The notes under the pieces are model-generated. The model was given only the letters and a program-made list of their open reading frames with translations, had not been told where the DNA came from and searched no databases. Made by a program: the position numbers and the translations under genes. From Basidiobolus ranarum (Eukaryota): a stretch of 57,851 bases of DNA. Location: positions 1 through 57,851 of the forward strand of contig JASJQH010006885.1 in the NCBI GenBank assembly GCA_040143965.1, read 5' to 3'. This document shows positions 4,434 to 50,189 of this stretch, piece after piece (positions within the stretch are counted from its first letter, which is position 1; every line of letters begins with the position of its first letter).

Positions 4434-4506
4434 GGGGTGTTGGCCTAATGGATAAGGCATCAGACTTCGGATCTGGGGATTGCGGGTTCGAGTCCCGTGC
4501 ACCTCG
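4434..4506 (+). tRNA. tRNA-Arg (anticodon UCG), copy 1
   Basis: 73-nt cloverleaf: acceptor GGGGTGT/GCACCTC, D arm GCCT-AATGGATA-AGGC, anticodon arm TCAGA-CTTCGGA-TCTGG, T arm GCGGG-TTCGAGT-CCCGT, followed by a T-run. Confidence 0.96.
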
Positions 4507-4949
4507 CTTTTGCTTCAACACATGACATTTACAAAATTATGCATTTAATTGTATTGAAACTATCAGCTTGAACATCGCAAAAGTTGAATATATCATATGG
4601 AATTTGAGTGGCGATATCTCATTACGAGAATCAAGTACATGACTGTCATCCCCCCGGTTTAATTATGGGACTACCATTATGGCATTTTACAACTTTGACT
4701 AAAACTATACAATCTTAGAATACAAATACTGTACCTCTCCCCTAACGTGATTTAACCACTTGTGAATAAGCATCTTGGTTTTACCATTGATACGTCACAC
4801 CTGTCTTAATTGACTACAAAATTCAAAAAAATATGGACACCGTTGCAGAGTACATTGAAGATAATGGGATCAATCGCCATGAACAAGTAAAGAGTGCAGC
4901 TATGTGAAGGTATACGCTAGAGTAGAGCTCACTAATTGGATATTTATGT

Positions 4950-5022
4950 GGGGTGTTGGCCTAATGGATAAGGCATCAGACTTCGGATCTGGGGATTGCG
5001 GGTTCGAGTCCCGTGCACCTCG
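4950..5022 (+). tRNA. tRNA-Arg (UCG), copy 2
   Basis: Identical to copy 1, followed by a TTTTT Pol III terminator. Confidence 0.96.
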
Positions 5023-5328
5023 TTTTTACTTCAAGCTATCACATGTATGAGTTCTAACCTCACCTTATTATTCCATGCTATTGATGTGTTTAGCTTCCAA
5101 GGATTAAAGTCGCTCCTGCTAGAGCTTACGTACTCATCGTTAGTTTAATGAATGATCTGACTCCTGGTCAATTCTCTAACAGATGCGATGTTGTGTCTGG
5201 CAATTTGGATGCCACAATATTGAGCGTATTACGACTCCTTCATTGATAAGTCAGGGAAGAATTTTAGAACGAAATACAATAACCGAAAGTAAACACTCAA
5301 AACAATCCTAAGTAATAGAATGTCATGT

Positions 5329-5401
5329 GGGGCGTTGGCCTAATGGATAAGGCATCAGACTTCGGATCTGGGGATTGCGGGTTCGAGTCCCGTGCGCCTC
5401 G
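5329..5401 (+). tRNA. tRNA-Arg (UCG), copy 3 (C5-G68 variant)
   Basis: Same cloverleaf with a compensatory acceptor-stem change, GGGGCGT/GCGCCTC. Confidence 0.96.
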
Positions 5402-5919
5402 CTTTTGCCCCAATACATGAAATATATGAAACTATTCACCTCTGAATCTTGTAATTCTAATGGAATTATCAACTTGTACATTGCTTGAAGTTGAGTATAT
5501 TATATAGAGTTCGAGTGGCAATGTCCCATTCAGAGAGATTAAGTACAAAGCTGGGGATTTTGACTGGAGATATCTTATTACGAGACCACAAAAACTAATT
5601 CTACTTGTAGATTACATTGAGGATGAAGGGAGCAAATTCCAGAAAAGTATGAATTTATGTGAAAGTTAATCGAAGAGAAAACCTTGATGTTACGCAACTA
5701 AGTAAACAAAGAAATATGAAAACTACTTAAGAACAAAGAAACATTCTAAGGCAAATTATTGGAAGGATGTATATTTATAAATGTATCAACAAAGTTAACG
5801 AATAAAATGAGCTCAATTAATAAGAATACTTCATTCTTTCGCTTCCTATGCTTACATTATTTTTGTAATCCTATAATTTACAACAGGCTCAACCAACCTC
5901 ACTAATTGGAAACTCGTAT

Positions 5920-5992
5920 GGGGTGTTGGCCTAATGGATAAGGCATCAGACTTCGGATCTGGGGATTGCGGGTTCGAGTCCCGTGCACCTCG
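5920..5992 (+). tRNA. tRNA-Arg (UCG), copy 4
   Basis: Identical to copies 1 and 2, followed by TTTTT. Confidence 0.96.
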
Positions 5993-6628
5993 TTTTTGCT
6001 TCAACATGAGATTTCCTATAGATAAATATAAAGTTGGGTTTTCAATATACCTCATTGTTTGTACTTCGTTAAAAAGTCATGTTTAGAAACGACTCCAGAC
6101 CAGATGAGAAATACTTAGCAAATTTCCTCAATGATATGAGTATACATGCAAGGTATGGAATTAGCTAACCGCCTGCCAGCTAGTCGTTTCAATAATAAAT
6201 TTCTCTAGAATACATAAACATATAGTGGCCGAGTGATGTGATTTCTTTAATGTAACAAATACCCCGAGTTTGAATTGATAATTGAACGATTGGATCTTAT
6301 ATCGTGCTGATTCAAAATTCAAAACGTGATGATCAGCTATCAAACACAAAGAAATCGTTCACCAGAATCTTGCTACACGAAACAAATGAAATTTCCTGGT
6401 TTTCATGTCCTACGACTAGTCCGGTCGGAATATATTCCTTTTTTCTAACAATGATTAGTCAGGTATAAAAGACATAGTTTAGCTTTCGTGAAAGTCAAAG
6501 ATAACGTACCATCCACATCTCTACTAAACCTCCTAGAACCAGAAGTTGCGACGAAATCAACGATAGATTCCCTACACTTTGGATTCCCGATATTTTAAAG
6601 CACGGTAACAGGTTGAATAATTCTAGAT

Positions 6629-15847: not shown

Positions 15848-16587
15848 ATGATGACAGCTACTGCTTCAGAACAAGATAAAAAACCCGAACCAGATCTTAT
15901 GGAAGTAGACGATAACTCTGAAAACAAACCTTCTGGCGAGGTCAAGGCAGCAAATGTCGAGATTTCCAGCGAGCTTCTTGAACGTCAAGAATGGATTAAA
16001 AACATGAGATTAAAGTTTTGCGTTCGCCCCGAGTTTGAAGTAACAAAGAATATTATTCATGAAGATGGAATGTTAAATCAAGAGTACCTATATTTTACTA
16101 TACCTCTTCAAGTTTCAATTCTCATGTTACATCGCTAGGTATTTTCTACCCCCTAAGGGTGTTAAGTTGGAAGCAGAACCTGAACGGAAGTGGACAGAGG
16201 CCGAACGTGCCCTACTCATCCAAGGAATACAACAATATGGTATCGGCCATTTTCGCGAAATTTCAGAAGCTTTGCTCCCTCAATGGGTATGTCTCTATTG
16301 TATCTGATCGGATAATTTCAATGCGACATAGTTTCTAACTGAGGAAATATCATGTTATATTGTTATAGAGTGGAAACGATTTGCGTGTGAAAAGTATGCG
16401 TTTGGTAGGTCGACAAAACCTTCAATTATACAAAGATTGGAAAGGCAGCCCAGAGGATATTGAACGAGAATACGAGCGTAACAAAGCAATTGGATTAAAG
16501 TATAACACCTGGAAGAATAGTACACTGGTTTATGACGATGCTGGACTGGTGCTTAAAGCCATCGAGGAGTCAGAGCCAAAGCTGTAG
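15848..16587 (+). CDS. Myb/homeodomain-like small protein, probable p2 subunit of the MTA1c DNA N6-adenine methyltransferase complex; exons 15848-16083, 16139-16286, 16369-16587
   Basis: Spliced product contains WIKNMRLKF..IIHEDGMLNQEYFLPPKG..KWTEAERALLIQGIQQYGIGHFREI..LRVKSMRLVGRQNLQLYKDWKG..NKAIG. This matches my recollection of the motif order in ciliate p2. Confidence 0.75.
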
Positions 16588-38465: not shown

Positions 38466-38538
38466 GGGGCGTTGGCCTAATGGATAAGGCATCAGACTTC
38501 GGATCTGGGGATTGCGGGTTCGAGTCCCGTGCGCCTCG
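38466..38538 (+). tRNA. tRNA-Arg (UCG), copy 5 (C5-G68 variant)
   Basis: Identical to copy 3, followed by a T-run. Confidence 0.96.
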
Positions 38539-39453
38539 CTTTTGGGTTCTTTATATGAAATTCCAACGAGTTAATACGTAACAACTCAATGGAATGTCAT
38601 TGGGTACTTTAATATTGTCTCACAACAACGAGTGGATTGTTTTCAAGTCTTTACTCGTCTATAAAGTATATGTATCTATTCTAATTCGGTAGAATGTTCT
38701 ACGAATGCCCAAAATTACTTCGTGTGATTCTGAAGTTGGGAAAGATTGAATTACAGACTGTTGATGTTTGACTTTGGGACAGAATAGGATGGTAAGAGAG
38801 TGAAAGATCGAAGCCGAGTTAGACATCTGTGCCCATATTGAGTATTCTTAAAAGTCAATAGAGAATCGCCATGACTATATTTATCATCCTAAGTGAAGAT
38901 CTTAATATCCTCTACCTGTTGGGAGCAAATCATATCAAAATCCTCAACCATTTGGATGATCAATTCTTGAATAGACACACACTCAGACAGTACAGTTAGT
39001 CTAGATTCTACATATAATAATCCACCCTTCAATGGGTGATGTAATACTAAATTAATTGAACATCATCATCTCATTTGACGCGTAGTATACGTTTCCCACC
39101 AGAATCAGCAAGCCAGCCAGCCAGCCAACCATCCCTAAACATTGACACATTAGTTTTATCATCTCGTTAGCCTTAATTTTAAATGCTATTTCTTCACAAT
39201 CGATTGAACCCTAGCCCTGGGTGTACCTCGTCACCTACCGTAGCCTATTAGCATCGTTTAAGCTGTTCTGCAGAAATAATGCAGCTGTGACTGACTGGCA
39301 AAGTGCAAGTAAATTAACTGAAGCAATGGTTATTATCGATATCTAATAATAATGATTAGTCTCCGTTCGAATGCTTTAAAAGGAGTGATTTCCTAAAGAT
39401 ACGTTGACAAATCTTTGGAGTATATTACATCTCATTTATTCTACTAGCTAGCC

Positions 39454-43900: not shown

Positions 43901-45755
43901 CTAGCGTCCCTTGTAAGGTTCACACAATTTCTTAAGCACATTATCTGAATTGTAGCGGTTCAGAATGTAGAGAGCACGTTTGAATTCCTGTCGAATTAGA
44001 TACCGACTATTTCAAAGGATAATTTGGTGGATAATTTAGTGATCGATAGAAAGGGTGTAGAGCTGGTAGAGGAGTGACTTACCCAGGTTTACTAACTACT
44101 CTTCCTACGTTGTTATCGACCTGGAAAGGGTCTTCGATACAAATCCTATCAGAGCAATTAGACAAGAGTATCGTTTCAACAAAGAATAGACGAGCTTACC
44201 AGTATCCTCCATTATAGAGCATCCTACCGTGCTTTCGTGTCTAGAAGAATGTTCAAGTTAGAATCATAGGATTCATGCATTTCATGGATAAGTCATGCTC
44301 ACATAAGTACGCCAGCCCTTATCTGCACGATCTATCAATTCTCCAGTTCGAATACTAAATTAAAAAGTGTCAGAAAATCCAACTCTCGCTCATATTGCAA
44401 CGGTGACATCTACCTGATAACGGAATGATCCAGGTCCATTTCGTGAGCGTAAAAATTGAAGAAGTTATAAAGTAATTCACCAATCTGTTGAGTATCCGCT
44501 TCAGGGGACCAGTGGTGTGGTAGATTCTTTAAATCATCAAAAAAATAAGTGTTGCATCCATTGACAATCTCTTGCGGTGGGGGTTTGGAATGGTCGGTAC
44601 GAATTTGTTGCAGTACGGGCAAATGACCTTGCTCTTGCATTAAGAAGATTGACATGAGTACGTAGCCGTAGCTATTCATCGTCCCGGTAAAAGGCTCGTT
44701 AATCCGACGAGATTTGGCCCAATGCTTCACGACTGTCACCAGTTGACGGAGTTGTGGATTAATCTGAGATTAGGTTGAGATTTGTTTAGCATCGCATTCG
44801 CTCGAGGTCATTGATAATCTCATTTCACCTGTGAATATGTCTTTAATAGCAGAGCATTGTAAACACCTATGATGTTGTTGAAACCAATGTCACAGCTTAG
44901 TCCACTATTTACATGGATGATGTAAGCATTGGTTCTCTTCATGCGAATGCTTTACTAGATACATACCTAACTCGATCCTAAGAGAACAAAGTTAGCAGAG
45001 CTGTCGAGTAATATCCACAGATTAACACAAACTCATACTTGAAGCTTTATGATGGGGACTTTTGCCTGAGGTATGGTGGTCACATATCCTAAATCATCTG
45101 TGACAGTGTCGGTTTTTTAAACGAATCCTCTCTAATATCCGCCTAGTATTTTCAACTTACGTGAATGTAAAATTCTTCCGAACTCTGTGACGAAGCTTCT
45201 TGGGTTCATAGAGCTACGACCTCTTGTGCATACACAGAAATCCACATCTTAATTGAGGGGTGATATTAGCTTTCAAATCACGATATTCAAGTAGCGCTAA
45301 TGAGGTCTTACCCGAATTTCTCAAACCGAAACCGGAAACCGTACTTCCAAAAGGAAAAAGTCTAGTATCTAATTCATGACCATGTAAGTGTCGACTCTTT
45401 GCTAATACTTTTAAACCATACTATTACCAGGTGCCCATTTTGTCAAAACTTTGTTCACTCTTTCATACAATAATTCCCGCTTCCTTTCGTCTTCTTTGGT
45501 ACTTGCCACAGTGGAACATAGTTTATTCACTTGTTCACTTACTGCCGAAAAGAACTCCTCTTTTTCGAACTCGGAAGTCTCTCCCTCTTCTTCGTATCCT
45601 CTTGAATGGGCGAGTTTCTTGGCCAAGTTACGTTTACGTTTAGGGGAGTGTTTGTAAGCACTTAACGCAGTGTCCAAGTGAAAACTTCGTAAGGTAAGTA
45701 GTCTACCTAAAGTGAAGTTGGCTCGTATTGTACTCGTATTTAACTGAAGCATCAT
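43901..45755 (-). CDS. Cid1/GLD2-family non-canonical RNA nucleotidyltransferase (poly(A)/poly(U) polymerase), multi-exon
   Basis: LFPFGSTVSGFGLRNS|DVDFCV (GS...DxD), KVPIIKL, CDIGFNN, VKHWAKSRRINEPFTGTMNSYGYVLM, and PAP-associated domain ICIEDPFQVDNNVGR. Confidence 0.88.
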
Positions 45756-46000
45756 ATCATATCATATATGCCGGACTTTGGCTATCATATGAATTTCCAT
45801 TTCGACAAGAAATTTTCGTACCATTCCCACTCACATTCAGCTAAATCTTTCATATGATCAATCTTTGATCGGGGTTAATCGATGAAGGAATTATTTGGGG
45901 TTTATTGTTTAGATATACAAGACTAACAAGACAAGTAACGAATTACAATAAAATTACAATCAAATAGAATACACTGGAAATATGTGTTCAATATGAGTTA

Positions 46001-48470
46001 TTATTCGACTTCACCAGAACGAACATGAAAATTCACCACTGTAGGTTGCATTAAAGTATGTTGCAAGGAAATCATAAAAGGTTGATCTGGATGGACGATA
46101 AAGGTTGCATATCTCCTACAAATAACTGATGAATGGATGCATTTAGATGGTATGCTGGTCAAGTGGACTTACTTGGAGACCCGACTTCCACCTCGATTGG
46201 GAACGTTCGTGTTAATTTTGAATTTAAGTTCACCGGTACTTCGTAGATAGAATTTGATGGGGAAATCTTGACATGGTTTAGGCCTAGAAAGACATGAGTT
46301 GACTTGGTAAACTTTTACGAATGAATCCTACCGAATTTACCTGTCCGAGGCAGAGATGGCTTTTTCATCGTAGCTGAACAGACTTGGATCAAAGTAAGGA
46401 CTCTCACTAAATGATTGAGGACTGTAGGGCAAGGCAGCCAGCACCCTTTTTACTGCCTGCGATGGTCTAAAGGAGAATACTTTTAGTATAGAGCAGCTTA
46501 ACGTTCATCGAATGATCACTTCTACCCTCCATTCCTAGCATTGCGGACCGCATATTGTTGTTTCTTTAAGATCAATCTAGCGAAAGCATTATTAGACCAA
46601 GTCCAATTCAAATTCGCTGGTTCATTATAATTAGGTCCTCGAAAGGATTCTGAATGATGCTCGAATAAACTGAGGAGTTCTTCGGAAGTATTTTCATAAA
46701 GGGCAATGATCATCGTTGTGTCGATATTATATACCACAAAGAATGCCGTTTGATTCGTTCCCTCAGTATTCTGAATGAATGATGAAAGGATTCGTTAGCC
46801 AAGTGATTTTCAGATAGTGAATTGGTAAATAAATGTGATATTACCCGGCCAGTGACACATTCAACACTACTCAGCTTTACCAGGAGATGTGTTTCATCTA
46901 GAAACTGAGCTTTCCAAAGAACCAACGATTCAAATTGTGAAAAAGTGAGGTAAAAGTTTTGTAGGGCCATTCCGCTGGGAGGGGGAGGGGTGAAGTTAGT
47001 CGATCTCTCTTTCATGTTACAAATACATGAGATGAACTAACTTATCGTCCACTGATTTGGCTTTCTTGTAAAGGTATGCCAACAGTCTATGCTTGAATCC
47101 ACTAAGGGGAGGCTGAGTCTACAAAGCGAACCTTGGTTTAGTTTCCCGTTTAACATCAATGGATCTTTTCTGTCTTAGAACTAACATGCTTGAAATCATC
47201 AAATAGAATACTCTGCTCATCGGGATTATCAACTAGAGATGGGTCCCGGTGTGATAACGAAGGAACCTCCAAGCGGGTGCTGGAACCGAGTGATAAAGTT
47301 CTTGACAGATCTATGCCTGCTCTTCCATGCCATTCCGCGTCTGGTGGTGCTGAATGGCTACGTTGACGTGTCTCAAATTGTTCATTGAATTCCTCGTATT
47401 TGGCCAGTTCCAATTCATCATCATCGTAGTTGTACCAGCCGATAGTTCTTAATCCAACGAATGTTCCATTTTCCTACAAACAACATCAACATCAGTTTTC
47501 AGGTTAACATTCCCACTTGTTCGTCTAAAGCGATTACCTTGATCTGAAATACATGTATACATTGATTTTGAAGTGATGTGATAGCGAAGAATTGACCATA
47601 CAAACTAACTCCAGAATGATGGGATAAATAAATGAAATCACTTTTAAAAGTCTTTCGGTCACATATCTAAGTTTCATGGGGAATAGATTGGTTAAGAGGG
47701 GGAGATAGATTGAACTATTCAACTTCTCAGTACCTTTCCACTTTCAATTTCCATCACATAAAACGTAATATCATCCAGGTTGGCCATACAATTCAACGAA
47801 GAAGGATATCTGCACGCTTCGGCCGAGGAAGCTGTGGAGGGACAGGCAGAGGCCAGGATAAGCTATTCAACGTATAAACTCCATTATACAAGAGTGCAAT
47901 TAAGCATTTGAACGAAGGAGAGCTTACATGTTTTTGATTGGATGTTACCAGGCAAAAGTCCTTACATAAGAGTTCAGCGGGATCAAAGGTGAGGATTTTC
48001 TCATACTTTAACGAGAAAAATTGTTGAAAAGTAGCGTGGAGTTAAAAAAGATACTCGAATCAAAGGAGGGACAATACAATAAAAGAAAAATCGCTAAAAA
48101 GGATATATAGCTCCACTTTCTGCTTCTGGTGACTCATTGTCCGGTTTCTTAGGACTACATGGTCCAAGAAACGTGTAAAGTTGAAGTGCATGTTGATTGC
48201 GAGAGAAGCAAACTAGGTGCTAAGCAGGGAATTAGAACCATTGAGTAACAAAATCAACAAGGAAATGGGACTAAATACCTTTCCGTCTGGAGTGAATCGT
48301 TTAAGAAATATACATGTAGATATGGCAATGTTGTATAGAGTATGGTTAGGATAAACGTGCTGATAGAGTTGACGTTTCTTCAAGTAGGTTGTGTTTGGCT
48401 TCTGAAAATTCAACTCTCGATTTCTAAGTATATTGACCAAGTTTCCAGGTGAGACGTAGGCTTTGTCCAT
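46001..48470 (-). CDS. DET1: DET1 (de-etiolated 1) homolog, CRL4-DDB1 adaptor, multi-exon
   Basis: RQLYQHVYPNHTLYNI..FLKRFTPDGK|HLVCFS, ELLCKDF, LWKAQFLDETHLLVK, YENTSEELLSLFE, LAALPYSPQSFSESPYFDPSLFSYDEK and HPDQPFMIS..VVNFHVR, all in DET1 order. Confidence 0.9.
48031..48106 (-). other. U12-type (minor spliceosome) AT-AC intron in DET1
   Basis: Minus strand reads /ATATCCTTTTT...TCTTTTTTAACTCCACGCTAC/. Removing these 76 nt restores the frame (ESGA I FQQFFSLKYE). Confidence 0.88.
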
Positions 48471-48920: not shown

Positions 48921-50189
48921 ATGACGAACGATACAGTAGTCGACATTACAGCCAAGGATTCCTTAGAATTTTCTCCTACGAACACAGTGGTTCGGGACCG
49001 AAATGGTTCTAGCCTGGGGGCCTATTTCAATGTAATTTGTGTTGTCGCTGGGACAGGTACGTTGCAACTTCCTCTTACCTTAGAGCAGGGTGGATGGGCC
49101 TCGATTTTCCTGATGATGATATGTGGAACGATAGCCGTCTACACAGGGAATCTATTAATCAAATGCCTTTATTACAATGGAAGAAGTCGATTGCCTGATT
49201 ATCCCTCGGTGGGTTATGCTGCCTACGGACGTTTTGGCCAGAATTTCATTCGGTTCTTTCATTACACAATTCTTCTTGGAGCATCATGTATATATATAAT
49301 CTTGGCTGGAGTAAATCTTCACGATTTACTGTTGAGAGCTGGAGTAAACTTGGATCCAAAGATATGGATTCTAATCTCTGCTGTGATTGTTTGGATTCCC
49401 TTTGTAGCTCTAAAGTCACTTAAAGAGTTTGTCTGGCTGTCAGTATTTGGTGTGTTGACCACATTTATAGTGATTATGGTGGCTGTTGTTGAGGGGTTTC
49501 TAGATTTACCCAATCAACAGGAAAATACACATCAATTCATTGTTCCTTCTGGAATCCCGATAGCGTTAACCTCGATCGCTTTCTCTTTCGGTGGCAATGC
49601 TATATATCCGCATGTGGAGGTGGCCATGAAGAATCGTCATTCTTGGAACAAAACCTTGGCCTTATCTATATTCACGATATTCTTGATGTATCTGTTGGTT
49701 AGCGTGTCTGGCTATTACGTCTATGGAAATACCACACTGTCCCCTATCTACGCCAATCTTCCACAAGGTGCGGCTACAATAGTTGCCATAGCGATGATTA
49801 CTGTGCATGTCGTGTTAGCAGCGCCATTAAATTTGATCAGTTTCTCCAATGAGATAGAGATTATATGGAATATCAATGATACATGCTACACTCCTTTGAA
49901 GGCATTTGCCCTTCGTTTTGTACTCCGTAGTTTTATCATGGTGTTACTGACCGTAGTGGGAGTATTTCTTCCATACTTTGGACCATTGATGTCCTTAATT
50001 GGTGGCCTTGGATATCCTATCATTCTCTTCCTTGCACCAATTGCACTTTATTTGAAATTATTTGGGGTCCGTTCTATGGGCTGGCCAGAACGTATATGGT
50101 GTCTTTTTATCACTTTTATTGCCATTATTGGTTTGGTTCTTGGAACCAAAGATGCTATCATTCAATTAATAAAAATCAAAAATCAGTAA
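48921..50189 (+). CDS. Amino acid/auxin permease (Aa_trans, AVT1-like) transporter, intronless
   Basis: GAYFNVICVVAGTGTLQLP and SIAFSFGGNAIYPHVE, with about 11 hydrophobic segments. First ATG is at 48921. Confidence 0.93.
   Translation: MTNDTVVDITAKDSLEFSPTNTVVRDRNGSSLGAYFNVICVVAGTGTLQLPLTLEQGGWASIFLMMICGTIAVYTGNLLIKCLYYNGRSRLPDYPSVGYAAYGRFGQNFIRFFHYTILLGASCIYIILAGVNLHDLLLRAGVNLDPKIWILISAVIVWIPFVALKSLKEFVWLSVFGVLTTFIVIMVAVVEGFLDLPNQQENTHQFIVPSGIPIALTSIAFSFGGNAIYPHVEVAMKNRHSWNKTLALSIFTIFLMYLLVSVSGYYVYGNTTLSPIYANLPQGAATIVAIAMITVHVVLAAPLNLISFSNEIEIIWNINDTCYTPLKAFALRFVLRSFIMVLLTVVGVFLPYFGPLMSLIGGLGYPIILFLAPIALYLKLFGVRSMGWPERIWCLFITFIAIIGLVLGTKDAIIQLIKIKNQ

Follow-up and report, generated by a model that had tools for sequence, protein, structure and literature searches.

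U12-type introns, the substrates of the minor spliceosome, are defined by a conserved 5′ splice site together with a conserved branch site and by the lack of a pyrimidine tract (Turunen et al. 2013, PMC3584512). According to the same source, the distance from the branch site to the 3′ splice site has its optimum at 11 to 13 nt, and either A of the branch motif can be used as the branch point. Minor introns are also biased away from phase 0 (Larue & Roy 2023, PMC10639083). Among fungi, the highest content was reported for Basidiobolus meristosporus, with 249 minor introns, or 0.554%; the accessible part of that survey gives no convincing minor introns for Ascomycota and Basidiomycota (PMC10639083). 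A second survey (Olthof et al. 2024, PMC11347168) counted 237 minor introns in B. meristosporus, where it also describes a divergent gene as a putative U4atac; for zoopagomycote lineages it reports genes for U11, U12, and U6atac. Going by what the available portions of these two articles report for the sister species, Basidiobolus ranarum probably has a working minor spliceosome as well.

We analyzed a stretch of B. ranarum DNA of 57,851 nt (assembly GCA_040143965.1, contig JASJQH010006885.1), referred to below as the window, in which the DET1 gene is interrupted by a candidate intron of this kind. An earlier note on this DNA had proposed the intron from the sequence and had implied that it was a surprise. 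Because the literature already places Basidiobolus first among fungi in minor introns (PMC10639083), that surprise is unjustified; the intron is an ordinary further example in a genus known to be rich in minor introns, and it is already implicit in the public annotation. Relative to the B. meristosporus set, as far as the available portions of PMC10639083 and PMC11347168 describe it, the genus and the kind of intron are the same and the host, B. ranarum, is different. In the accessible main text of these two articles, DET1 occurs 0 times, and our literature search found no paper joining DET1 with U12-type introns. The Rfam matches in the window consisted of five tRNAs only, with no minor snRNA gene among them. 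All five are tRNA-Arg genes (anticodon TCG): four form a same-strand array at 4434-5993 on the plus strand, with starts 380 to 590 nt apart, and the fifth (38466-38539, plus strand) lies 32 kb from that array.

DET1 (De-etiolated 1) is a substrate-receptor-like subunit of CRL4 ubiquitin-ligase complexes. The coding sequence of the B. ranarum orthologue, stop codon included, extends over 46001..48470 on the minus strand and comprises 12 exons and 11 introns, with a predicted product of 585 aa. This product matches the Pfam Det1 family (PF09737) with 397.9 bits and an E value of 7.3e-119, against a curated cut-off of 25 bits; residues 125-580 cover positions 1-411 of the 412 in the profile, and single DET1 exons pass the cut-off alone (60.3 and 38 bits). 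The reading of the gene as the DET1 gene of an early-diverging fungus is supported. The protein is like known DET1, and there is nothing unusual in the protein itself. Ten of its introns are GT-AG introns of 57 to 74 nt, none of which has TATCC at positions 2 to 6. The upstream neighbor on the opposite strand is a seemingly intronless amino-acid transporter open reading frame (ORF) (48921-50186, plus strand; Pfam Aa_trans, E 4e-56), and a nucleotidyltransferase is located downstream, at about 45400-45800 of the window on the minus strand.

The remaining intron, intron 2, occupies 48031..48106 on the minus strand and measures 76 nt, with 67% A+T and phase 2. Read on the minus strand from 48106, its first bases are ATATCCTTTTT. 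The 5′ splice site, ATATCCTT (48099..48106, minus strand), starts at the first intron base and is a full match to the U12-type consensus, [A/G]TATCCTT. Toward the other end lies a branch-site-like motif, TTTTTTAAC, at 48041..48049 on the minus strand, whose two As, at 48043 and 48042, precede the final intron base by 12 and 11 nt, respectively; the branch-to-3′ distance is thus 12 or 11 nt, depending on which A serves. From this motif to the end of the intron there are only the ten bases TCCACGCTAC, without pyrimidine-tract character, and hence there is no distinct polypyrimidine tract before the exon. The intron closes with a terminal AC (48031..48032, minus strand), so that its termini are AT-AC, unmixed with those of the GT-AG class.

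Removal of intron 2 joins ...ESGA in frame to FQQFFSLKYEK... through an Ile codon split as AT/T. Exon 2 (48107..48219, minus strand, 113 nt) ends with ...GAA AGT GGA GCT AT, the last two bases belonging to the Ile codon, and the first base of exon 3 (47928..48030, minus strand, 103 nt) completes that codon and is followed by the conserved F..FF.L.YE block. The frame entering the intron contains stops. On retention, the in-frame TAG at 48094..48096 (minus strand) is met, which ends the product after 105 aa with ...ESGAIYPF. The features attributed to this intron beforehand, namely, the perfect 5′ site, a branch-like motif about 11 to 12 nt from the end, no polypyrimidine tract, the AC end, the length of 76 nt, and phase 2, were all found in place, and the in-frame joining of ESGA-I-FQQFF with conserved DET1 sequence was reproduced.

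Set beside U12-type AT-AC introns as described in the accessible part of PMC3584512, intron 2 is alike in its rigid ATATCCTT, in a branch motif ending in TTAAC at 11 to 12 nt from the 3′ end, in the lack of a pyrimidine tract, in its AT-AC termini, and in a phase other than 0. Phase 2 is also in keeping with the under-representation of phase 0 among minor introns (PMC10639083). At 76 nt, it is short compared with animal and plant U12-type introns and near the size of the other introns of the gene. The branch motif is the weaker match and sets intron 2 apart: the U12-type branch-point consensus is TCCTTAAC-like and contains C-C, and TTTTTTAAC matches this consensus, which is not species-specific, at 6 of 8 positions, with T-T in place of C-C. 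Opposite the pairing region of U12 snRNA, the T-T would presumably form G-U wobbles.

Motif counts near expectation indicate that these signals by themselves are not beyond chance. The 8-mer ATATCCTT is not enriched, with 5 sites on both strands of the window against 3.55 expected, a number reached in 29 of 100 shuffles, and for GTATCCTT the window has 2 sites where 1.74 are expected. The composite signal, a loose one that we defined as ATATCCTT followed by a branch-like motif and then by AC 10 to 15 nt on, all within at most 200 nt, is present once in the window; its mean over 300 first-order Markov simulations was 0.48, and 117 of the 300 contained at least one. A second exact ATATCCTT, at 47802-47809 on the minus strand, falls in exon 4 of DET1 as ordinary coding sequence (...CRYPSS...) and shows that the 8-mer alone proves nothing. 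What does go beyond chance is that the single composite site coincides with a break in the conserved DET1 frame and restores that frame. A scan of the window for U12-like sites yielded 7 donors, which paired with acceptors in 12 combinations; stop-free joined frames were obtained only for the DET1 site and for a donor at 16460 (15974-16460, minus strand). The latter has ATATCCTC with branch-like motifs and would, in its two combinations, give introns 477 and 487 nt long; because it is antisense to a plus-strand gene, we rejected it as a chance occurrence.

Exons 2 and 3 could be joined in frame and without stops in 22 ways, comprising 9 GC-AG candidates, 13 AT-AC candidates, and 0 GT-AG candidates. 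All nine GC-AG candidates yield products that lose the conserved F..FF block, and their donors depart from what we take to be the usual GC donor consensus. Only 48106..48031 among the 22 has the U12 register and retains the F..FF block. The earlier note named reads showing a GT-AG junction nearby as one result that would speak against its reading; in the sequence, there is no in-frame GT-AG solution between exons 2 and 3.

Judged by homology, both exons flanking intron 2 are true DET1. Exons 1 to 3 align lengthwise with the N-termini of full-length DET1 homologues recovered in a representative protein search, and an alignment of 11 sequences shows no variation at F107 and almost none at F103, right after the junction. 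The site corresponds to residue 102, upstream of the Pfam Det1 domain. Since the junction lies on the margin of a variable loop, its exact base is set by the splice signals and the frame and cannot be set by homology.

Searching proteins with a single exon as the query retrieved two products of locus tag K7432_000538 (B. ranarum) and one B. meristosporus model. We then compared the deposited B. ranarum proteins with an exhaustive search of exon chains, in which GT-AG, GC-AG, and AT-AC introns of 35 to 299 nt were allowed. The deposited protein of 585 aa (P0153) results from exactly one chain, which combines the AT-AC intron 48106..48031 with 10 GT-AG introns; the public record therefore already contains the junction. 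P0153 fixes it at the residue level only, given that a shifted TA..CT junction (48105..48030) encodes the same residues. The second deposited product (P0001, 424 aa) starts at the ATG of Met162 in exon 4 (47785..47787, minus strand) and is the longest ORF of a transcript retaining intron 2, which suggests that the depositors saw an intron-retaining or 5′-shortened transcript. Our literature search found no paper describing the B. ranarum annotation. We also looked for Basidiobolus proteins, derived from transcripts or otherwise, that cross the junction; the “shorter” length class yielded none, and the “near” class yielded only the B. meristosporus model. The prediction that gene predictors would mis-annotate this gene is consequently right in part: the 585-aa record has the junction, against that prediction, while the truncated 424-aa product beside it and a B. 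meristosporus model that is wrong at the site agree with it.

The published U12-type features are thus present, save for the T-T in the branch motif, and on this basis we read intron 2 as a minor-spliceosome intron recognized by the U11/U12 di-snRNP. We assign a probability of roughly 0.88 to the conclusion that intron 2 of B. ranarum DET1 truly belongs to the U12 type (AT-AC subtype) and is excised by the minor spliceosome. For the earlier note, this means that its U12-type reading stands on the sequence features and on the lack of a GT-AG alternative, with a qualification for the branch motif at 6 of 8 consensus positions. In the mechanism that we propose, the U11/U12 di-snRNP would bind ATATCCTT (through U11, later replaced by U6atac) jointly with the branch site TTTTTTAAC (through U12), and the 3′ site would be the AC located 11 to 12 nt downstream, chosen with neither a pyrimidine tract nor U2AF. 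Splicing would then join exons 2 and 3 in phase 2 and give full-length DET1 of 585 aa. If intron 2 were retained, translation would stop after 105 aa, and the longest remaining ORF would encode the N-terminally truncated 424-aa product.

One alternative is that the intron 2 stretch is never removed, in which case the real product would be the 424-aa protein from Met162 and exons 1 to 3 would be a decaying or untranslated leader. The 424-aa product does stand in the public record, where it equals the longest ORF on retention of intron 2, yet the depositors also give the 585-aa product. Moreover, exons 1 to 3 are open and align with distant full-length DET1 N-termini, including nearly invariant residues, and conservation is seen where the B. 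meristosporus model P0002 covers exons 2 and 3 (73% identity over 36% of residues 1-140; exon 1 lies outside P0002). We consider this scenario very unlikely.

Splicing of the AT-AC intron by the major (U2-dependent) spliceosome would have to accommodate a 5′ site that is the full U12-type ATATCCTT and a branch-like motif 11 to 12 nt from the 3′ end with no pyrimidine tract after it, which is the U12 layout and is unlike that of the gene's 10 U2-type introns. We find this explanation barely credible, even allowing for the two positions at which TTTTTTAAC departs from the U12 branch consensus. A further point in its favor is that introns outside the U12 type can also have AT-AC termini (PMC3584512). 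Finally, we give a negligible chance to an error of sequencing or assembly that would have broken a continuous exon. The site is uninterrupted in 25 of 25 other DET1 loci that cover it, but the interruption is 76 nt long rather than a one-base frameshift, the incoming frame meets stops within it, each of its ends bears consensus splice signals, the window is free of N, and the B. meristosporus model, too, shows a disturbance at this site.

This B. meristosporus DET1 model (P0002, 856 aa; gene K493DRAFT_405593) starts within exon 2, carries 14 residues that are unexplained precisely where ...ESG should meet FQRFF..., and is fused to a downstream Cid1/TUTase-like nucleotidyltransferase (Pfam PF22600, PF03828, PF19088, and PF01909). 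We considered whether the 14 extra residues are a translated homologous intron and obtained no signal for it: they bear no significant likeness to any frame of intron 2, their score being equaled or exceeded by 1540 of 2000 shuffled peptides. Another DET1 model from a congener (P0155, 592 aa) is full length. As the B. meristosporus DET1 model P0002 is annotated without the intron, annotation-based surveys may have missed it, and counts of minor introns that rely on annotation will miss cases of this sort. Reading intron 2 of B. ranarum DET1 as a minor intron adds one well-supported case to the Basidiobolus catalogue and leaves the known distribution and mechanism of minor splicing unchanged. 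It also gives concrete instances of the damage that such introns do to gene models, namely, a truncated second product in B. ranarum and a B. meristosporus model that reads through, lacks its N-terminal part, and is fused, to which truncated DET1 models in several early-diverging fungi can be added as a lead only.

With regard to these other fungi, eight homologue models start at projected residues 83-100, near the intron 2 site. They include the models of Diversispora epigaea (P0003), Gaertneriomyces sp. (P0017), Borealophlyctis nickersoniae (P0009), and Siphonaria sp. (P0071), whose starts are within about 20 residues of the site, as well as that of B. meristosporus. The same intron may have defeated predictors in those early-diverging fungi too. 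Truncated model starts also cluster near other exon borders, and for this reason the idea of a shared intron is a lead only. It is unlikely, in our estimate, that the DET1 minor intron is an old feature common to early-diverging fungi and works as a switch. Such a switch would consist of slow or regulated minor splicing that toggles between full-length DET1 and either a 105-aa stub or the truncated 424-aa form, and it would, if real, tie light or CRL4 signaling to minor-spliceosome activity.

We also compared the position of intron 2 with DET1 loci from one metagenome scan, which returned 40 loci, 25 of them covering the homologous site. All 25 read through the site in one frame, and 19 of the 25 are on contigs of at least 5 kb. 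Sixteen metagenome loci (L014-L024, L029, L032, and L036-L038) show a gap of about 90 to 120 nt with a change of frame near residues 171-175; a gap of intron size combined with a frame change indicates that these are unspliced genomic DNA. The uninterrupted reading of all 25 covering loci means that intron 2 is not a general DET1 feature; none of these loci shares its position. The gap near residues 171-175 in the 16 loci is close to intron 4 of B. ranarum, which lies between residues 179 and 180, and the position of intron 4 may be common to B. ranarum and these metagenome loci.
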